From IMG/VR virus record IMGVR_UViG_2695420427_000010: a stretch of DNA of 7,214 nucleotides; one strand, written 5' to 3'. The notes under the pieces were generated by a model, which was not told the origin of the DNA, did not search any database, and worked only from the letters and a program-made list of their open reading frames with translations. This DNA is from a virus (lineage: Duplodnaviria > Heunggongvirae > Uroviricota > Caudoviricetes). Shown here piece after piece: positions 1 through 7,214 of this stretch. The stretch's first letter is position 1. The number at the start of each line of letters is the position of its first letter. The translations under genes were made by a program, and so were the position numbers.

Positions 1-229
1 GCGGCGCTGGGCAACGACCCGAATTTTGCGACCACCATGACTAACGCGCTTGCGGGTAAGCAACCGAAAGATGCCACCCTGACGGCGCTGGCCGGACTTA
101 CTACTGCGGCAGGCAAGTTTCCGTATTTTACGGGGAATGATGTCGCCAGCCTGGCAACCCTGACAAAAGTCGGGCGGGATATTCTTGCGAAATCGACCGT
201 TGCCGCCGTTATCGAATACCTCGGTTTAC
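1..229. repeat. Inverted repeat copy 1 of the 3' end of the stf constant region, paired with 4236..4464
   Basis: Direct comparison: the reverse complement of 1..229 equals 4236..4464 except for one mismatch (204 C versus the equivalent of T at 4261, synonymous). Identity stops at 229/4236, inside the variable-side half of the crossover site. Confidence 0.9.
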
Positions 230-1122
230 AGGAAACGGTAAACAAGGCTGGTAACGCCGTTCAGCGTTCCGGCGATAAAATGACCGGAGAACTGAAAATT
301 GGCACGGTGAATGCGCTGCGAATTTTCAATGATACCTTCGGTCTAATTTTCCGTCGTTCAGAAGATTTTCTTCATTTCATTCCGACGGCTGAAGGACAAG
401 GCGAAAACGGTAATATCGGCCCATTAAGGCCATTCGCTATAAATCTGAGAACAGGTGCTATATCTGTCAGCCACGGGGCCAAAATTAAAGGAGGTCTAGC
501 TATTGGAGCTACTGATAACGCACTGGGTGAAAACTCCATTGTTCTGGGAGATAACGACACCGGATTTAGGCAAGATGGAGATGGTATTATTAGCTTCTAT
601 TCAAATGGTTCGCGCATCGGACATATTGATGAGTTAGGATTACATCTTTATAAAGATATTGAATCTAATGGCAGCAATTTTAGATTAAAAAGTAATTACC
701 GCCACCACATTACATTCGCCAACGAAGACGGAAGAATTCGTATGTTTTTGTGGAAAGATAACGGTGGTGATGGTGTTCATATTAATAACGGTTCAGATGG
801 TGGTGGTGATTTCATTTTTAAAACAGATGGGGGATTTGCGCTGGGAAGTGGTGCGCAAGTTGCGTCTAGTGGCGATATTTATGGTTCAGTGTGGGAAAAC
901 AACTGGTTAAGCACATGGCTGCATAATCATGTCGTTCGGGATATTCGTCTTGGCAGCATTGAATATAAAAACGTATGGCGCGACTACGGCTTTGGCGATG
1001 CGTCAGGTTATGTTTTAACAGCCGCAATTAACAGCAATGCGGATGATATTGTCGACACTGTTGCCAGAAGGCCAATTCAGAAATTGATTGGGGGAATATG
1101 GTACAACGTGGGGAGTGTTTAA
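1..1122 (+). CDS. stf: Side tail fibre protein, 3' portion: end of constant region (1..229) plus variable tip cassette C1 (230..1119). Partial, the reading frame is open from position 1 and the gene continues upstream of the window.
   Basis: Frame 1 is open from nt 1. The first 76 codons match the constant-region segment of the minus-strand stf ORF ([12 protein letters not shown]...AVIEYLGL). The downstream cassette carries tail-fibre-like motifs ([23 protein letters not shown]) and ends with TAA at 1120-1122, 1 nt before the tfa start. Confidence 0.85.
209..234. other. Site B, gix/pix/hix-like 26-bp inversion crossover site (12-bp half-site, 2-bp core, 12-bp half-site) at the stf constant/variable junction
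   Basis: TTATCGAATACC-TC-GGTTTACAGGAA. From memory, the Mu gix site is TTATCCAAAACC-TC-GGTTTACAGGAA; the right half matches exactly and the left half has 2 mismatches. The position at a tail-fibre constant/variable boundary is the classical one. Confidence 0.75.
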
Positions 1123-1123
1123 G

Positions 1124-1651
1124 ATGATGCACCTGAAAAATATTAAGGCCGGGAATCCGAAAACACCGGAACAATACCAGCTAACTAAAAAAGCGGGCGT
1201 GGTATGGCTCTTTTGCGAAGATGGCAAAAACTGGTATGAGGAACAAAAGAATTTTCAGCCAGACACCATAAAAATTGCTTACGATGAGAACAACATCATC
1301 GTTGCTGTCAGTAAAGACGTTTCAACTATTAATCCTGAAGGGCTAAGCATAGTTGAAGTTCCTGATATTACGGCAAATCGTCACGCAGACAATAACGGAA
1401 AATGGATGTTTCTGGATGGTAAAGTAGTAAAGAGGGAATATACAGAACAGGAACTGCAACAACAGGCCGAATCACAAAAGGCCGCATTGCTTTCCGAAGC
1501 TGAATCAGTCATCCAGCCGCTGGAACGCGCTGTCAGGCTGAATATGGCGACGGACGAGGAACGCACACGACTGGAAGCATGGGAACGCTACAGTGTTCTG
1601 GTCAGCCGTGTGGATACGGCAAATCCTGAATGGCCACAAAAGCCTGAATAA
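1124..1651 (+). CDS. tfa: Tail fibre assembly protein (Tfa chaperone) for cassette C1
   Basis: Product begins [21 protein letters not shown], the conserved Tfa N-terminus of lambda Tfa / Mu U type. GGGGAG ribosome-binding site 8 nt upstream. Starts 1 nt after the stf stop. Confidence 0.85.
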
Positions 1652-1656
1652 AAATT

Positions 1657-1676
1657 AAGGCCCGATAGCGGGCCTT
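1657..1676. terminator. Candidate bidirectional intrinsic terminator between the convergent tfa genes
   Basis: Perfect 8-bp stem AAGGCCCG / CGGGCCTT with a 4-nt loop in the 28-bp gap between the Tfa1 stop (1649-1651) and the Tfa2 stop (1680-1682). The minus-strand transcript has a T-rich run after the stem; the plus-strand tail is weaker. Confidence 0.5.
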
Positions 1677-1679
1677 CTC

Positions 1680-2213
1680 TCATTCTGGTTGTTCGGGAAA
1701 CGTTACTGGCAGGCTGGAGGTGTCTGTGGATTCAACCTTCTGCGCATAGAGCATCCACTCGGTTAATTTTTGTTTATTCTCATCGGAAATGATGCCCAGC
1801 TGTAGCTGAGAGTCCCACAGCTGGGTTTTATCCCTGACGAGCTGCAGCAGGCTCTGCTTTTCATTTTCCGCTTGTTGCCTTTGCTCTTCCTCGGTATAAG
1901 TTCGCTTTATCACCGCACCATCTTTGAACATCCAGTTGCCCGAAATATCAGCCCGGCGATTTGCTGTAATATCAGGCAACTCAACGACACTTAAACCTTC
2001 TGGATTAATTGCTGATACATCCTTGTCTATAGCAATAATTATTCCCTCAACTGTGTAAGCCAGTTTTATTGTATCCTCCTGAAAGTTTTTTAATTCCTCA
2101 TGCCAATTTTTTCCATCTTCGGACCATAACCAGATAACATCAAAATTCTTTGTTAGCTGGTATTGTTCAACGGTTTTTGGATTACCTGCGACAATGTTTT
2201 TTAAATGCTGCAT
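1680..2213 (-). CDS. tfa: Tail fibre assembly protein (Tfa chaperone) for cassette C2
   Basis: Product begins [21 protein letters not shown] and is a paralogue of Tfa1 with a divergent C-terminal half. AGGT ribosome-binding site. Convergent with Tfa1. Confidence 0.85.
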
Positions 2214-2215
2214 GA

Positions 2216-3142
2216 TTATACCTGCGATACGTTATACCATGTTCCGTTAATTAACTTTTGTATTGGTCTGAATACTGCCGGATCATCACCATCGACTTCA
2301 CCGATAATACCAAGCCCCGTGATTACATGGCCTGATTTTTCATACATCACGCCTTTCTTCATGGTCTAAACAACTCGTGTGCCAAGTCTGACATCTCTCA
2401 CATAGCGGGAATCAAAGTTACCGTAATCCGAGGGATTAACACGTCCCGTAATATTTATGGTTTTATTACTTTGAATGCTTCCGGAGACAAAGCGCATAAC
2501 ATGGACGTTATTAGCATAAACATCCAGATTACCATCGCCTTTTTGTTTAAAGCCCGTGTCATTATCACCCAATACAATCGAATTACCGCCAAGAGCACTG
2601 GATGTTCCGATACCCAGTGCACCATTCAGTTGACCACCAGATAACGGCAGTGCACCAACATCTCCTGCTGAAGGTTTTCTGGTGGTGTAAAATTCGGACC
2701 AGTCGGCTTCAAAACCATAACCATCACGGGCTGAACGATAAAAAATACCGCCATTTTTATAATTAATCCGAAACTGAGCTGCAGGACAACTTCCTTCTCC
2801 CATATAAAAATGAATAATTAACGTTGATGCACCACTAATAGTTGCGTTATAGGCTCCGCTACTCCAGTTCCATCCAACTGCTTTATCATTCGCAACGGTG
2901 CTTCCTGTTTTCCCTAAGGCAAACGCACCAACATGACTTGCTTTTAATGTGATATCGGAGGAACCATCAAAAGCCACATTGCTTATTTTCCTGGCAGTTT
3001 TTAATTTTGCAGCTGTAGAAGCATTGCCGGATAGTTCACCAGAAAGGCCACCGCTGAATGTTTGTCGATTAGTCCAGGTATTCGCTGTACTGAGTAACGG
3101 TATTTTCTCCCCGCTTGTGCCGAGTTCTCGTAAACCGAGGTT
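2216..3142 (-). pseudogene. Alternative tail-fibre tip cassette C2 with no start codon of its own (would be expressed only when fused at site C), interrupted by a single in-frame amber codon at 2366-2368
   Basis: The frame is open from the codon after the site-C stop (3142) down to TAG at 2366-2368, then continues in the same frame for 49 codons (T, then MKKGVMYEKSGHV...[17 protein letters not shown]) to TAA at 2216-2218. The post-amber tail aligns with the last residues of cassette C1 ([18 protein letters not shown]), and VRDVRLG before the amber aligns with VRDIRLG in C1. Confidence 0.7.
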
Positions 3143-3150
3143 TTAGATAA
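3125..3150. other. Site C, gix/pix-like 26-bp crossover site immediately upstream of the invertase gene (gixR-equivalent position)
   Basis: TTCTCGTAAACC-GA-GGTTTTAGATAA, a near match to the recalled gix sequence TTCCTGTAAACCGAGGTTTTGGATAA. The reading frame through the site is the same as through site B, so recombination gives an in-frame const-C2 fusion. Confidence 0.75.
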
Positions 3151-3204
3151 TGGCGGTTTCTGGCCTGCATGGCATGATTTGTGCTTTTGGACGGGAGATT
3201 CAGC

Positions 3205-3531
3205 GTGCTGATTGGCTATGTAAGGGTATCAACAAATGACCAGAATACAGACCTGCAACGAAACGCTCTTGTTTGTGCAGGATATGAACAAATATTTGAA
3301 GATAAATTAAGCGGAACAAGGACAGGCCGACCTGGATTAAAACGTGCTTTAAAGCGCCTTCAAAAAGGTGACGCACTGGTTGTCTGAAAACTGGACTGAC
3401 TGGGTCACTGTATGCGGCATCTTGTCGTGCTGGTGGTGGAAGCCTAGAAAAAGTATCGGGTGTTGCTGAACCGTGTTGATACATCAACTGCACCTGATAT
3501 TGAGTGGCCTACGAACCCTGTCAGGGAGTAA
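3205..3531 (+). pseudogene. pin: Serine DNA invertase of the Pin/Gin/Hin/Cin family, inactivated: 60 N-terminal codons intact, then multiple stops and frame decay, 3' end missing
   Basis: GTG at 3205 with a GGGAG ribosome-binding site gives MLIGYVRVSTNDQNTDLQRNALVCAGYEQIFEDKLSGTRTGRPGLKRALKRLQKGDALVV, the recalled Pin/Gin N-terminus. TGA at 3385-3387 sits where the family has Trp (VVWKLDRLGRS); further stops follow at 3397-3399, 3445-3447 and 3529-3531. An intact gene of about 185 codons would run to about 3770, which is occupied by the convergent methyltransferase coding sequence. Confidence 0.8.
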
Positions 3532-3545
3532 TCATTGGGATTATG

Positions 3546-3578
3546 CCGCAGCACGTCTTAAGCAAGAACGTGCTGCGG
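3546..3578 (+). terminator. Strong hairpin between the invertase remnant and the stop codon of the stf-methyltransferase fusion; possible plus-strand terminator
   Basis: Perfect 11-bp stem CCGCAGCACGT / ACGTGCTGCGG with an 11-nt loop. On the plus strand it is followed by TTGGATGCTATTTTTT, an interrupted T-tract. There is no T-tract on the minus strand. Confidence 0.35.
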
Positions 3579-3585
3579 TTGGATG

Positions 3586-6099
3586 CTATTTTTTCCCTGA
3601 AGCGGAAAACATTACTACAGTACCTTGAACCCTGGTTTTAACATTCTCGAAATGCTCTGAGAGTATATGTGTTAAGCCTTCTTCGGAATCTTTTGTGTTT
3701 GAAAAGATGCCTTTCTGATTGTAAATGCGCATCAGTTTTTGACCGAAGCTATTGTGCACAACTCCATCGCCAAGAATTGTGGCTCCGTATAGAGTTCCAT
3801 CGTCAGTTAAGGCCTGCGCCGCATTGCGTATTACACAGCTTTTTGTAGATATATTTCCAGGCAGGCAGTGAAGAAGGTAAAACATGGAAATGGAATCAAA
3901 TTGACCATGTAACGCCGCGGGATAAGGTTCAAAAACATCATGGCTAATTTTATGTTTAATTTTTGATTCCCCAGCCCTTGTAGATGCCGCGTTCAGGCTA
4001 GCTTCGTTCAAATCCATTAAAGATATCAGACTACTCTCAGGTACGTGAGTAAGGTAAAACCCAGTTCCAACACCAATATCCAGATGGTTGTTACCTAAAT
4101 GTTCCAGAAAGTGTGGAAGAAGGTGTTCCTTTGTAGGACATCCCCATGCAAGCCGATTTGATACTCCCAAAACCCACCAGTCATAAAGCTTTAGGGTAAG
4201 TGGTGTGTAAATTTTAGCCCCATCATCTGTGTTTAGTAAACCGAGGTATTCGATAACGGCAGCAACGGTCGATTTCGCAAGAATATCCCGCCCGACTTTT
4301 GTCAGGGTTGCCAGGCTGGCGACATCATTCCCCGTAAAATACGGAAACTTGCCTGCCGCAGTAGTAAGTCCGGCCAGCGCCGTCAGGGTGGCATCTTTCG
4401 GTTGCTTACCCGCAAGCGCGTTAGTCATGGTGGTCGCAAAATTCGGGTCGTTGCCCAGCGCCGCAGCCAGCTCGTTCAGCGTGTTCAGTGCATCAGGTGA
4501 CGAATCTACAAGGGCGGCAATCGCAGCCATAACGAAAGCCGTGCTTGCGATTTGGGTATTATTCGTTCCCTGTCGCGCAGTTGGTGTTGTTGGCGTTCCG
4601 GTCAGTGCAGGACTATTTAAGGGCGCTTTCTTGTTCGTTTCACCCATTACCGCCTTAACCGCTTTTGGCGTTGCCGCCAGTGACTCGGAAGTGCTGTTGG
4701 TCGCACTGCTGAGCTGTACTATCCCCTTTTTCGTCGTGCTCGCATCCTCCAGCGCCACGGCGGATGCAATATCCTCTGCCCGTTTTGCTGCTGTCTCGGC
4801 GCGCGTTGCCGCGGATTCAGCAGCAACTTTGCTCTGAGATGCAGCCGTCGCACTGCCTGCCGCCTCTGATGCTTTCGTTGTTGCTGTCGTGGCACTACCT
4901 TTCGCTGCTGACGCTTGTCTGGTCGCCTCATCTTTTGAAGCAGACGCAGATGATGCCGATGACGCCGCTGAACTGGCTGACGATGCGGCTGCTGCCTTAG
5001 AGGAAGCAGCATTGTCTGCTGAAGTCTTTGCATTTGTTTCAGAGGTTTTTGCTGCAGAAGCAGACCTCGCTGCTGCAGTGGCTTGCTCAGTGGCTTTGCC
5101 AGCCTTCGTTGTGGCTGTTGAAGCGGATGATGCGGCGCTTTCTGCCGATTTTCCGGCGGCGGTGGCACTGGCTGAGGCCTGCCCGGCACTTGTTGACGCG
5201 GCACTGGCAGATAATGCAGCCGCTGTTTTTGAACCTGCCGCAGCTGAGGCGCTCTGTCCCGCTGCTGTTTCAGAAGACTTAGCGTTCGTCTCGGACGTTT
5301 TTGCCGCCTTCGCGGAATTTCCTGCCGCCGTTGCCGAGGAAGCTGCACTACTGGCACTTGATGATGCATTCGTTTCTGAAGATTTCGCTGCCTCTTTTGA
5401 GGCCGCCGCACCCCGTGCCGAGGTGGCAGCTTCTGACGCCTTCGTGGTCGCTGTGGATGCAGAAGTGGCTGCCGATTTTTGTGATGCTGCGGCATTCGTT
5501 TCTGACGTTTTCGCGGCACTGGCGCTGGTAGCTGCCGCGCTTTTTGATGACTCTGCAGCAGCACTTTTTGCTGCTTCACGGGCCTTTGTCGATGCCGTTC
5601 CTGCGCTGGAAGACGCTGACTGAGCCGACGACGCGGCCTGTCCGGCTGACGTGCTGGCGGCACGTGCTGAGGCTGCAGCATCGGTTGCATGAGTTGCCGC
5701 CTCGCTGGCTGATTTTTTCGCGGCTGCCGTATTCTGTGCAACCGCGGAGGCGTTACGTGACACCTCTTCCACCATCTGCTCAAAGCGGCGCAGTGCCTCC
5801 GGTCGGACATCATCCTCCGTCATGGCACCGAGAAAATCATTCAGCGTACCTGGTCTGGAACCTTCATAGACGGTAATGGTCCCGGCATGTGAAGGCGGAA
5901 AACCTTCAACCAGCAGGGTGACGCTGTACTGACCATGCTCAACATCCATGCTGTAACGTCCGGCTTCATCCGGATTTTCAGAGGCCACCGTGTTCACCAC
6001 CATCGTGCTGCTGGTTCGTCTGGCCTTCAGCACAATGGTGCAGTTCTGTACTGGTTTTCCTGTGCCATCTTTAAGCACGCCAGAAATTTTTACTGTCAT
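3586..6099 (-). CDS. stf: Side tail fibre protein Stf (lambda-like N-terminal and central constant region, 4237..6099) fused in frame at crossover site A to a C-terminal SAM-dependent methyltransferase-like domain
   Basis: 837-codon ORF with a GGTGGA ribosome-binding site. The N-terminus MTVKISGVLKDGTGKPVQNCTI...GFPPSHAGTITVYE is recognisably the lambda Stf N-terminus. A long Ala/Ser/Thr-rich repetitive shaft follows. The constant region ends ...AVIEYLGL at the site, then LNTDDGAKIY... runs into the methyltransferase motifs. Confidence 0.85.
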   Translation of the reverse strand: MTVKISGVLKDGTGKPVQNCTIVLKARRTSSTMVVNTVASENPDEAGRYSMDVEHGQYSVTLLVEGFPPSHAGTITVYEGSRPGTLNDFLGAMTEDDVRPEALRRFEQMVEEVSRNASAVAQNTAAAKKSASEAATHATDAAASARAASTSAGQAASSAQSASSSAGTASTKAREAAKSAAAESSKSAAATSASAAKTSETNAAASQKSAATSASTATTKASEAATSARGAAASKEAAKSSETNASSSASSAASSATAAGNSAKAAKTSETNAKSSETAAGQSASAAAGSKTAAALSASAASTSAGQASASATAAGKSAESAASSASTATTKAGKATEQATAAARSASAAKTSETNAKTSADNAASSKAAAASSASSAASSASSASASKDEATRQASAAKGSATTATTKASEAAGSATAASQSKVAAESAATRAETAAKRAEDIASAVALEDASTTKKGIVQLSSATNSTSESLAATPKAVKAVMGETNKKAPLNSPALTGTPTTPTARQGTNNTQIASTAFVMAAIAALVDSSPDALNTLNELAAALGNDPNFATTMTNALAGKQPKDATLTALAGLTTAAGKFPYFTGNDVASLATLTKVGRDILAKSTVAAVIEYLGLLNTDDGAKIYTPLTLKLYDWWVLGVSNRLAWGCPTKEHLLPHFLEHLGNNHLDIGVGTGFYLTHVPESSLISLMDLNEASLNAASTRAGESKIKHKISHDVFEPYPAALHGQFDSISMFYLLHCLPGNISTKSCVIRNAAQALTDDGTLYGATILGDGVVHNSFGQKLMRIYNQKGIFSNTKDSEEGLTHILSEHFENVKTRVQGTVVMFSASGKK
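3589..4236 (-). other. Class I (Rossmann-fold) SAM-dependent methyltransferase-like domain forming the C-terminus of the stf ORF
   Basis: Motif I HLDIGVGTGFY (about 4050..4080); an acidic post-I residue in LMDLNEASL; DVFEPYP and FDSISMFYLLHCLP resemble motifs II/III. No DPPY/NPPY motif and no PCQ motif, so it does not look like a DNA methyltransferase. No Met between the junction and motif I. Confidence 0.6.
4231..4256. other. Site A, gix/pix-like crossover site at the junction of the stf constant region and the methyltransferase domain
   Basis: GTTTAGTAAACC-GA-GGTATTCGATAA. The constant-side half-site is identical to that of site B (TTATCGAATACC on the coding strand) and the core is the same. 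The variable-side half keeps the inner GTAAACC but differs in the outer 5 positions. Confidence 0.7.
4236..4464. repeat. Inverted repeat copy 2 (3' end of the stf constant region on the minus strand), paired with 1..229
   Basis: See copy 1: 228/229 identity to the reverse complement of 1..229. Confidence 0.9.
4735..5770 (-). repeat. Low-complexity, internally repetitive Ala/Ser/Thr-rich shaft-coding region of stf (approximate bounds)
   Basis: Translation shows reiterated KTSETNA / SASAA / TATTKASEAA units. The GC-rich codon repetition produces long open frames on both strands (track ORFs 4719..5813 minus, 4889..5623 plus and others). Confidence 0.5.
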
Positions 6100-6100
6100 A

Positions 6101-6136
6101 CTTTTCCACCAATAAAAAAAGCCCGCAGCAGTGACG
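6101..6136 (-). terminator. Intrinsic terminator downstream of lom, immediately upstream of the stf ribosome-binding site
   Basis: Minus-strand RNA: stem AAGCCCG / CGGGCTT (7 bp, 14-nt loop) followed by TTTTTTTTAT, then GGTGGA and the stf ATG. Confidence 0.6.
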
Positions 6137-6250
6137 CCACGGGCTTCAGGACAGTGTAACTTTACGTTTCCTCAAACGCAGTTCACCCCATAAGGTGGAT
6201 GAACCTGCGTATCATAACAATATTTACAGAAGATAAATCGGCGTCTGTTG

Positions 6251-6850
6251 TCAGATACGGTATCCGATACCAACAATAAATGCATCCGTTCGCCAGTCAC
6301 CACTACCGGAACCTTCATAAGCAAGGTCAATGGTCACGGATTCGGTCGGGTTAAACTGCACGCCAGCCCCCCACGCCAGAGACGTGTTGCTGTGGCGACC
6401 GTCATCACTTCCGGTCAGCACGTCGTGCGTTTTCCCCTTGTTGTCAGTTACGCGGAGATAATCCCCGGAGAAAGTCGACACACGGCTGTAAGCCACGCCT
6501 GCCATCGCATACGCGCTGAACCATTCATTCACGCGTACAGACGGCCCCGCCATCACGCTGAACCAGCGGTTACGCACGGAATCTTCATGCCAGCGGGTAT
6601 CGCTGTAGTGCGTTTTTTGCTCATCCTCAGCATTGGCATAACTGAAGGACGTAATCAGCCCCAGCGCGTCCGTAAACTCATAACGGTATTTCACGTTAAT
6701 CCCGTTCAGATTATCGCTGCCGGGAGCGTTCGTACGGGCATGAAGATACCCCGCGCTCAGTGTGGACTGATGTTCAGACGCCCATGCAGGCGCACCGGAT
6801 ACGGACAGACAGATGGCTGCGGACAAAATGGCTGCACAAACTTTACGCAT
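6251..6850 (-). CDS. lom: Lom outer-membrane protein (Ail/OmpX/PagC family beta-barrel)
   Basis: 199-codon ORF with a signal-peptide-like N-terminus (MRKVCAAILSAAICLSVSGAPAWA) and a C-terminal aromatic residue. The sequence is recognisably lambda Lom, and its position between J and stf matches lambda. GAGAGG ribosome-binding site. Confidence 0.9.
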   Translation of the reverse strand: MRKVCAAILSAAICLSVSGAPAWASEHQSTLSAGYLHARTNAPGSDNLNGINVKYRYEFTDALGLITSFSYANAEDEQKTHYSDTRWHEDSVRNRWFSVMAGPSVRVNEWFSAYAMAGVAYSRVSTFSGDYLRVTDNKGKTHDVLTGSDDGRHSNTSLAWGAGVQFNPTESVTIDLAYEGSGSGDWRTDAFIVGIGYRI

Positions 6851-6871
6851 AATTACCTCTCGCTTTTCTGC

Positions 6872-6898
6872 AATAAAAAAGGCGCCATTTCTGGCGCC
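6872..6898 (-). terminator. Intrinsic terminator between J and lom
   Basis: Minus-strand RNA: stem GGCGCCA / TGGCGCC with a 4-nt loop followed by TTTTTTATT. Confidence 0.6.
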
Positions 6899-6917
6899 CG
6901 TATATGGGTTATAAAAT

Positions 6918-7214
6918 TCAGCTGATACTGATGCCTGCGGTGGCTTTCTTCATCACCACAACCAGCAAATCGCTGATACTTGCTGTGGGATACCAGTCAT
7001 TTACCAGCCATGATGACACCGAAAACTCCAGCGTCATGTGGCCGCGACCAGCTGGCATATCAATAACACCACTGTAAATCAGCGTATTATCCAGCGCGGT
7101 ACGGTTATAAATTTCAGCACCGTTTTTCCGTACTATCAGGCGGCATGACGAATAAATATCGTTATTCTCCCGCTCATGTTTAGCGCCGCTGAATGCCACC
7201 GCCGGAATAACAAT
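6918..7214 (-). CDS. J: Tail tip host-specificity protein J, C-terminal end (partial, continues beyond the window end)
   Basis: The ORF is open to the window edge and ends 68 nt upstream of lom, separated by a terminator. Synteny J-lom-stf is that of lambda. Assignment rests mainly on position and recalled similarity of the C-terminus; not verified. Confidence 0.65.

Follow-up and report, generated by a model that had tools for sequence, protein, structure and literature searches.

The DNA analysed here (the window, 7,214 nt) is the entire draft contig CXDV01000178.1. It carries the following genes and features:

1–229, + strand: conserved 3′ end of the fibre constant part, the copy on C1 (...MTNALAGKQ...AVIEYLGL), reaching the contig end
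209–234, + strand: crossover site A, 26 bp, gix/pix-type (TTATCGAATACC TC GGTTTACAGGAA), its right half identical to Mu gix
230–1122, + strand: C1, variable tip exon 1, intact; it continues the frame of the conserved end after EYLGL and has its stop codon at 1120–1122
1124–1651, + strand: Tfa1, tail-fibre assembly protein of 175 aa, 144/175 residues (82%) identical to Mu U
1680–2213, − strand: Tfa2, tail-fibre assembly protein of 177 aa, 150/177 residues (85%) identical to Mu U′
2216–3129, − strand: C2, variable tip exon 2, promoterless; a TAA in the flank just upstream and an in-frame TAG at 2366–2368
3125–3150, − strand: crossover site B, 26 bp, gix/pix-like (TTATCTAAAACC TC GGTTTACGAGAA)
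3205–3387, + strand: remnant of a Gin/Pin-type serine invertase, 60 codons comprising the Resolvase N-terminal domain only, 57/60 (95%) identical to Gin
3446–3531, + strand: what is left of a third tfa gene, its 3′ end (...YRVLLNRVDTSTAPDIEWPTNPVRE*), fused to the invertase remnant
3586–4234, − strand: class I SAM-dependent methyltransferase, a prophage cargo gene lacking its first 6–7 codons
4235, no strand: scaffold gap; the window has an A here, the public record an N
4236–6099, − strand: stf constant part with its N-terminal domain (PF08400), Ala/Ser/Thr-rich repeat shaft and conserved end
6251–6850, − strand: lom (Ail/Lom outer-membrane protein), the upstream neighbour of stf, as in lambda
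6918–7214, − strand: 3′ end of the tail-tip gene J, running off the contig; PF12421 was detected on the product of relative L019

The constant fibre part is of the lambda Stf type, as phage_tail_N (PF08400) scored 232 bits over residues 1–134 and both lom and the 3′ end of J lie upstream. It stops at GGTTTAC, the last base common to all cassette junctions. Since base 4235 is an N, the apparent stf::methyltransferase fusion and the 229-nt inverted repeat (1–229 is the reverse complement of 4236–4464 except for one mismatch, 204 C against T) both span a scaffold join, and because of this join the shaft is connected to neither cassette in the window. The methyltransferase lacks its start because the sequence stops at the gap; the gene has its own start codon in all relatives. 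Across its junction, the 837-aa fusion ORF (3586–6099) is not continuously sequenced; in the source contig it is split by gene callers, and an exact look-up of it returned no record. This contig can thus be read as a warning about draft assemblies, where an in-frame fibre::methyltransferase ORF and a near-perfect 229-nt repeat span a one-base scaffold gap.

Should the arrangement be taken literally, a ~4-kb rearrangement in the isolate or in a subpopulation would have put the methyltransferase directly after the shaft, creating the fusion and the inverted repeat. We regard this as very unlikely. Although the scaffolder joined the contigs at these ends, which would normally need linking read pairs, and the contig ending at 4234 stops where relatives go on for 340–410 nt before a repeat, the N provides no read-level junction and leaves the reading frame across it undefined. 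The shaft contig ends exactly at GGTTTAC, the point where C1 and C2 diverge, as expected of a branch point in an assembly graph. No gix-like quasi-site was found near the 5′ end of the methyltransferase gene, the best candidates (13–14 of 22 positions) being at the level of shuffled sequence, and the junction was not found in 5,426 E. coli genomes, species-representative genomes, JGI metagenomes, phage records or 13 related loci. Moreover, the 229-nt conserved end occurs twice, which a plain inversion cannot bring about.

Several more specific origins of this junction were considered and rejected. A Gin/Pin-type crossover at a secondary site is contradicted by the homology of the shaft continuing 7 nt past the core, by the lack of a quasi-site and by the N at the joining base. 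A natural third cassette starting with GGTTTACTAAAC had just two unrelated chance matches in IMG/VR. Template switching or inverted duplication is unnecessary for the 229-nt repeat, as the conserved block terminates each of the two joined contigs. That the left arm ends at 229 nt because of a shared-repeat boundary was not confirmed, the block shared with the P2-like fibre gene in E. coli 4/1-1 being 407 nt long.

Between the arms, two opposed sets of a fibre 3′ exon and an assembly gene were found, C1–Tfa1 on the + strand and C2–Tfa2 on the − strand, while the constant 5′ part that they share lies outside the segment. Both Tfa proteins contain Caudo_TAP (PF02413; 126.8 and 117.8 bits, the gathering score being 22.1), both genes lie directly downstream of their fibre exon, as is typical of this family of assembly proteins, and both products match PDB chain 5YVQ_B (Mu U) with E = 1e-93 and 6e-64. 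The earlier note had described Tfa1 and Tfa2 as alike in their N-terminal half only, and pairwise alignment agreed: 98/175 positions (56%) were identical, with sliding identity of 55–85% over residues 1–110 and 20–35% over the last ~65 residues. In a secondary summary, the N-terminal domain of Mu Tfa is described as the fibre-binding part (PMC9608196). The same note regarded the cassettes as receptor-binding tips with matched chaperones. Pfam (gp37_trimer, gp37_C and Phage_fiber_C on the tips) and PDB sequence matches of tips and Tfa proteins to Mu S, S′ and U identify them as fibre tips with assembly proteins; that each Tfa is the matched chaperone of its tip we infer from gene adjacency.

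That C1 and C2 share short islands only, instead of being near-identical duplicates, was also confirmed by alignment. Globally, 95 identities were counted in 224 aligned columns interrupted by long gaps (z = 9.2 against 200 shuffles), and windows of at least 60% identity formed two islands only, one ending in [RK]Q together with its surroundings (nt 532–573 in C1, 2543–2584 in C2) and one at the C-terminus (1069–1110 and 2228–2269). The short VRD[IV]RLG motif occurs in both tips (934–954 and 2381–2401). C2 is not one open frame, since the TAG at 2366–2368 cuts the C-terminal island off from the rest; in relative L012 this codon is CAG. Residues 72–170 of C2 are 75–95% identical to residues 163–260 of Mu S′ while the flanking parts are unrelated, and C2 DNA is 97.4% identical in the P2-like prophage L003. 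For C1, no relative above 44% identity was found among isolated phages. The tips presumably have receptor specificities of their own; assigning a receptor class is unjustified, as the relatives of C1 reach at most 44% among isolated phages and C2 matches Mu S′ in its central block only.

Sites A and B lie at the two cassette boundaries in inverted orientation and have the common core ACC-TC-GGTTTAC, identical over 12 bp (ACCTCGGTTTAC), of which three copies occur in the window where none is expected by chance. The 26-bp consensus likewise has three matches against an expectation of zero, and the two that bound the cassettes in inverted orientation deviate from it by 2 mismatches each. The site sequences match Mu gixL and gixR, and region 3130–3395 is 93% identical at DNA level to Mu gixR with the 5′ end of gin. 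The whole segment showed ~80% DNA identity to the invertible segments of Mu, D108, SfMu, P1 and P7. The reading frames of both C1 and C2 run on in frame from EYLGL, and relatives carry either stf::C1 genes of 918 aa or stf::C2 genes of 875 aa. Considering these data, region 230–3142 very probably represents a homologue of the Mu G segment, namely the invertible host-range segment carried by a lambda-like (J, lom, stf) prophage from the E. coli/Shigella group. Site-specific inversion swaps the two tip-plus-chaperone cassettes, which lack promoters and serve one gene as alternative 3′ ends; this explains both their convergent layout and the sharp boundary at ...EYLGL. Flip-flop switches of the G-segment type that exchange the receptor-binding end of a tail fibre are already known, and this region is a real but ordinary example of them.

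Both orientations were observed in relatives and in other E. coli genomes rather than in the isolate of the window itself. In the near-clonal strains E. coli 4/1-1 and 4/0, a 3,065-bp segment is exactly inverted at the core, while its flanks of 3,635 and 6,931 nt (10.5 kb) are 100% identical. A search of 5,426 complete E. coli genomes showed that loci with the truncated invertase are split 239 to 144 between the two orientations. A crossover inside the common core would exchange the outer half-sites, and precisely this exchange is seen in L009, L011 and L017. The complete chromosomes L005 and L012 are in the opposite state to L009 and L011, and the draft relatives L016 and L017, which encode an identical Lom protein, also differ in orientation. 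Since the invertase truncation is common to all these genomes, the inversion happened after the truncation.

This order of events bears on the possibility that the switch is dead in this isolate, i.e. that an architecture of the invertible type has been frozen for want of a compatible invertase and is decaying. Of the invertase, 60 codons are left with further stops behind them, no intact copy lies in the window, C2 carries the amber codon, and in relatives J is split and IS elements have been inserted; pin genes were reportedly present in three Shigella subgroups only (the 1991 survey of Tominaga et al.). The amber codon and the decayed surroundings suggest that the element is degenerating here. 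Nevertheless, the opposite states of L016 and L017 and of L005/L012 and L009/L011, all reached after the truncation, speak against a frozen switch, which we consider unlikely.

The invertase remnant adjoins site B and is followed by decayed codons up to ~3445, with stops at 3385 and 3397, and then by the third tfa remnant, annotated in relatives as an incomplete tail fiber assembly protein. No HTH follows the remnant, and the window contains no intact serine invertase gene (Resolvase plus C-terminal HTH). As the invertase is cut to 60 codons and yet both orientations occur, inversion must be driven in trans, and the locus is an orphan segment depending on an invertase supplied from elsewhere. 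In E. coli 4/1-1, a P2-like prophage with the same sites encodes an intact invertase of 199 aa (Resolvase+HTH_7), and P2-like prophages of this kind are a likely source of the trans-acting enzyme. In Mu and Hin, a Fis-dependent enhancer sits in cis in the 5′ part of the invertase gene. The first ~190 nt of the gin-like gene are kept here at 93% identity to Mu, and the remnant may retain such an enhancer; in the Hin system, ~100 bp separate the recombinational enhancer and hix (PMC3798978). That a Pin invertase can act in trans on the segment of another prophage has been documented for PinQ and e14 (PMC12529663).

According to the mechanism we propose, a serine invertase of the Gin/Pin/Cin/Hin type would cut both sites at the central TC and rotate the segment. 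Translation would continue in frame from ...EYLGL into whichever exon then adjoins the constant shaft, and this exon would share a transcript with its own chaperone gene, while the module away from the shaft would be silent. As the element's own invertase gene comprises 60 codons only, flipping would be supplied by the invertase of another prophage, and owing to the amber codon in C2, full-length fibre would be made in this lineage from the C1 state only.

The cassettes had been noted as more AT-rich than the stf shaft, and base composition is indeed not uniform across the window: the GC content of 230–3142 is 43.6%, against 56.9% in the stf phage part, 4236–6099 (two-proportion z ~9). Low GC runs on past the cassettes through the invertase remnant and the methyltransferase gene (3143–4235, 43.7%), therefore the step lies at the crossover site instead of enclosing the cassettes alone. 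Amino-acid composition accounts for part of the contrast, since the Ala/Ser/Thr-rich middle of the shaft has a GC2 of 0.79 with a GC3 of only 0.44. A contrast at synonymous sites is real, GC3 being 0.55–0.60 in the conserved stf end versus 0.33–0.37 in C1 and C2.

Such a step could be thought to reflect a static mosaic, in which the cassettes were imported horizontally, came to lie side by side and never switch, their AT-richness being the trace of a recent arrival in a GC-rich fibre gene. The step itself is real, and the cassettes are mosaic and common to unrelated phage types. However, Mu shows a similar step (42–47% in the G segment versus 53% upstream), as does the P2-like prophage (43% versus 54–55%), so AT-richness is a trait of the cassette family, Mu and P2-like phages included, and the step is no evidence of recent acquisition by this prophage. 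Furthermore, the lambdoid stf and the P2-like fibre gene share 407 nt of the GC-rich conserved end with 100% identity; the shared block thus reaches into the GC-rich part and the GC step does not mark the edge of the exchanged unit. Crossover sites exactly at both boundaries, exact inversions between clonal genomes and the frequent occurrence of both states are also at odds with a static arrangement, which is already contradicted by the orientation polymorphism and seems hardly credible to us. Of the horizontal acquisition proposed in the earlier note, the mosaic nature of the cassettes holds (the central block of C2 resembles Mu S′, and the cassette is shared with L003), while the GC step fails as evidence of recent import.

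With the invertible-segment reading, the orientation found in any single assembly is arbitrary: the region is a phase-variable host-range switch, and in annotation its fibre genes are best given a single constant part and two alternative 3′ exons. The locus is of modest biological interest in that its own invertase is dead and yet the segment still flips in natural clonal populations, which fits recent evidence that invertible segments of cryptic prophages can be driven in trans and perhaps used by the host. Hundreds of E. coli/Shigella genomes still have the orphan switch, within a prophage that has decayed. By analogy with StfE2/PinQ of e14, one could speculate that the cassettes, the sites and the 5′ stub of the invertase gene, possibly with its enhancer, are kept for the host and not for the phage, and that in one orientation a fibre-derived protein masks a surface receptor so that other phages cannot infect, an idea that we offer as quite unlikely.

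Among known systems, the G segment of Mu (and of D108 and SfMu, with Gin) has the same layout, Sc/Sv–U, U′–S′v/gin, and the same 26-bp sites with the core ACCTCGGTTTAC, the right half of site A being identical to gix. The likeness extends to the proteins: Tfa1 is 82% identical to U and Tfa2 85% to U′, the remnant is 95% identical to the Gin N-terminus and a block of C2 is 75–95% identical to S′. In contrast, the element described here is a lambda-like siphovirus prophage (J–lom–stf) and the Mu-like phages are myoviruses; its constant part resembles lambda Stf (PF08400), its invertase is truncated, C1 reaches only ~27% identity to Mu Sv and C2 contains an amber codon. The C segment of P1/P7 (Cin) and the B segment of S. 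boydii (PinB) resemble it in the Tfa genes and the adjacent tip ends (~80% DNA identity), and the P1 record mentions in its annotation a 93% match with the pinB locus of S. boydii. P1 differs by an extra gene and by 0.6-kb inverted repeats within its segment; here the repeats are the 26–32-bp sites only. The P segment of e14 (stfP/stfE, PinE, with PinQ of Qin acting in trans) is likewise an invertible fibre segment of a defective E. coli prophage, where inversion makes chimeric stf genes and can be driven by the invertase of a different prophage (PMC12529663). Unlike our locus, e14 keeps its own pinE, its reported inverted repeats differ in sequence (TTGGTTTGGGAGAAGG), and a role in host defence has been shown for e14. 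The P2-like E. coli prophages L003 and L020 belong to a different phage family, being myoviruses with a baseplate gene context, and have an intact 199-aa invertase; they share with this locus the same sites, the 407 nt of the conserved end at 100% identity and a C2-type cassette at 97%.

The window represents the distal end of a lambda-like prophage, lying on the minus strand, and an exact match to its Lom protein led to contig CXDV01000178.1 (draft assembly GCA_001260535.1), which is the window in reverse. Since the window is the whole of this contig, its ends are contig ends. The sole difference between the two is position 4235, which is N in the record and A in the window.

Features of the window (coordinates, strand, description)
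209-234, site A, 26-bp crossover site where the conserved fibre end (...EYLGL) meets C1
230-1122, plus strand, C1, variable tail-fibre tip exon
1124-1651, plus strand, Tfa1, assembly protein (putative chaperone of C1)
1680-2213, minus strand, Tfa2, assembly protein (putative chaperone of C2)
3129-2216, minus strand, C2, the alternative tip exon
3125-3150, site B, crossover site in inverted orientation at the junction of C2 and the flank of the recombinase remnant
3205-3387, Gin-like recombinase remnant of 60 codons, Resolvase domain only
3586-4234, minus strand, cargo gene at the end of the prophage, a class I SAM-dependent methyltransferase (Methyltransf_12/23/25)
start at 6099, minus strand, stf, the fibre shaft
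6251-6850, minus strand, lom
6918-7214, minus strand, 3' end of J

The closest relatives were found in E. coli and IS-rich chromosomes of 4.8-5.0 Mb, where the prophage adjoins the trp operon. Eight substitutions (1549, 1552, 6422, 6497, 6500, 6998, 7002, and 7013) are clustered, mostly apparently synonymous, and absent from all 13 related loci compared, a clustering which suggests either short patches recombined in from a paralogous prophage or a consensus of paralogues collapsed in short-read assembly.

As given, the window carries the shaft in frame into the methyltransferase gene, forming an 837-aa ORF (3586-6099, minus strand), and contains the conserved fibre end twice in inverted orientation (1-229 and 4236-4464), the left copy reaching exactly to the contig end. 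The 229-nt copies differ at one position (C at 204 against T at the equivalent of 4261), though the repeat tool gave 100%. Because the record has N at the joining position, the window consists of two contigs placed across a one-base scaffold gap, and the inverted repeat results from both of them carrying the conserved fibre end at an end. Positions 1-4234 run collinear with three related loci (L005, L012, and L016) in their canonical stf::C1 arrangement, and 4236-7214 corresponds in reverse complement to the canonical J-lom-stf region. The shaft part stops exactly at GGTTTAC, the last base common to the C1 and C2 junctions, and the first contig ends at 4234, the exact divergence point of two natural 5' alleles of the methyltransferase gene (GTGTTT followed by T in E. 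coli-type loci and by G in L005); the joining base matches neither parent. The scaffold link might instead reflect a real rearrangement in a subpopulation, which we consider improbable: the junction was not found in any collection searched, and near the methyltransferase start no gix-like quasi-site was detected, the best scores (13-14 of 22) being the same as in shuffled sequence. In every relative this gene begins with a start codon of its own and is oriented away from stf. Determined sequence therefore backs neither the 837-aa fusion ORF nor the inverted repeat, and the ORF does not count as an established gene.

Three copies of the 12-mer ACCTCGGTTTAC lie in the window against 0 expected by chance, each within a 26-bp sequence that fits the gix/hix/pix-type consensus. 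Mu gixL and gixR read TTATCCAAAACC TC GGTTTACAGGAA, and site A reads TTATCGAATACC TC GGTTTACAGGAA. The resemblance to Mu extends to the genes, with 144/175 residues identical between U and Tfa1, 150/177 between U' and Tfa2, and 57/60 between Gin and the recombinase remnant, while Mu gixR with the 5' end of gin matches 3130-3395 at 93% DNA identity. At DNA level the whole segment is approximately 80% identical to its invertible counterparts in Mu, D108, SfMu, P1, and P7. The region is very probably a host-range switch of the G-segment type on a lambda Stf shaft (PF08400).

Both orientations were observed among the relatives. L005 and L012 encode stf::C1 (918 aa), and L009 and L011 encode stf::C2 (875 aa, ended by an amber codon), between the same flanks. 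The outer half-sites are swapped between the two pairs (positions 208, 214, and 217 against 3142, 3145, and 3151), exactly as predicted for exchange inside the shared core. The same kind of difference was seen between two drafts with identical Lom protein and opposite segment states (L016 and L017). In E. coli 4/1-1 and 4/0, the flanks (3,635 and 6,931 nt) are 100% identical and the inner 3,065 bp is inverted, with breakpoints in ACCTCGGTTTAC. When 5,426 complete E. coli genomes were searched with two 631-nt queries, each joining the flank of the truncated invertase to 200 nt from the start of one cassette, C2 adjoined this flank in 239 genomes and C1 in 144.

The invertase gene beside the segment is dead: TGA stops follow codon 60 (3385 and 3397), and gin homology has faded by ~3445, where the remnant runs into what is left of a third tfa gene (its 3' end, last ~28 codons, to 3531). 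The identical truncation was present in every relative examined. Since all of these genomes share it and yet near-clones differ in orientation, we infer that inversion must have postdated the truncation and been catalysed in trans. E. coli 4/1-1 offers a candidate enzyme, a 199-aa Resolvase+HTH_7 protein that is intact and belongs to a P2-like prophage whose own fibre segment carries the same sites. There is a precedent for action in trans, as PinQ of prophage Qin inverts the e14 P segment (PMC12529663). The Hin enhancer lies ~100 bp from a hix site (PMC3798978) and that of Mu, going by the title of Kahmann et al. 1985 (cited in PMC3798978), is located inside the gene for the invertase; given these positions, a putative enhancer could still be present in the 190-240 nt that remain of the gin-like gene.

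Both C1 and C2 extend the frame of the shaft past EYLGL, and a TAA stands directly upstream of the silent exon copy. Their alignment gave 95 identities in 224 aligned columns with long gaps (z = 9.2 against shuffles), and the short shared islands were found where the earlier note had placed them. Its description of the chaperones also held: Tfa1 and Tfa2 are 56% identical overall, with an identity of 55-85% in the first 110 residues that drops to 20-35% in the final 65. Residues 72-170 of C2 are 75-95% identical to Mu S' with unrelated adjoining parts, and among isolated phages no relative of C1 exceeded 44% identity. One correction is necessary, namely an in-frame TAG in C2 (2366-2368, minus strand), 50 codons ahead of the natural stop, so that the last 50 codons, including the C-terminal island, lie beyond a stop. 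This TAG is common to most close relatives (gene calls of 203 and 48 aa) and is CAG in L012; the homologue in E. coli 4/1-1, annotated up to the tfa-adjoining position, appears from this extent to be an uninterrupted frame. In the C2 state, the fibre of the window's lineage would be without the conserved C-terminal island.

The cassettes were confirmed to be more AT-rich than the shaft (43.6% GC in 230-3142 against 56.9% in the phage part of stf, z ~9). The step is located at the crossover site, and low GC runs on through the remnant and the methyltransferase gene (3143-4235, 43.7%). The shaft repeats are rich in Ala, Ser, and Thr (38% Ala, 23% Ser), with a GC2 of 0.79 and a GC3 of only 0.44; part of the shaft GC is codon choice imposed by amino-acid content. 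The difference at synonymous sites is real, GC3 being 0.55-0.60 in the conserved end and N-terminal domain and 0.33-0.37 in C1 and C2. The shaft at 4700-5700 (minus strand) is a low-complexity repeat, with a 33-nt repeat family (D1) at 4876-5517, and the repeats produce spurious long ORFs of 202, 244, and 364 aa in other frames and on the other strand (4229-5813).

The observations of the earlier note were real, with the C2 stop as the one correction, and its interpretation was partly right. Exchange between phage types is clear: C2 has a 97.4% identical DNA copy in a P2-like prophage, its Mu S'-like block has unrelated neighbours, and 407 nt of the conserved fibre end (4236-4642) are 100% identical to the P2-like fibre gene of E. 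coli 4/1-1 (L020, 3501-3907), making this end a shared recombination module that stops well upstream of the crossover site. However, Mu has the same GC step (52.7% in upstream genes, 42.5-47.2% in G-segment genes), as does the P2-like prophage (43% against 54-55%). Low GC is a trait of this cassette family wherever it resides and not a sign of recent import here. The methyltransferase gene (41.7% GC) is >99% conserved in hundreds of E. coli genomes, and in the relatives a second copy of the third-tfa 3' end with a hairpin lies on its far side, so that the cargo gene is bracketed by ~130-bp direct repeats (1570-1700 and 2640-2770 in the related locus L001).

Elements of this kind and the mosaic evolution of their tips have been described for decades, reportedly by Haggard-Ljungquist et al. 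in 1992 and Sandmeier in 1994, among others. The invertible segment itself is an already known kind of element. Like Din-family invertible fibre segments, it has crossover sites, two exon-plus-chaperone sets in convergent layout, and one constant part common to both sets, and it is observed in both orientations, the breakpoints falling in the sites. An intact adjacent invertase is missing, making it an orphan segment dependent on supply in trans. The closest relatives of the locus are the Mu G segment, the e14 P segment, the P1/P7 C segment, the segments of P2-like prophages, and the S. boydii B segment, which the annotation of the P1 record mentions.
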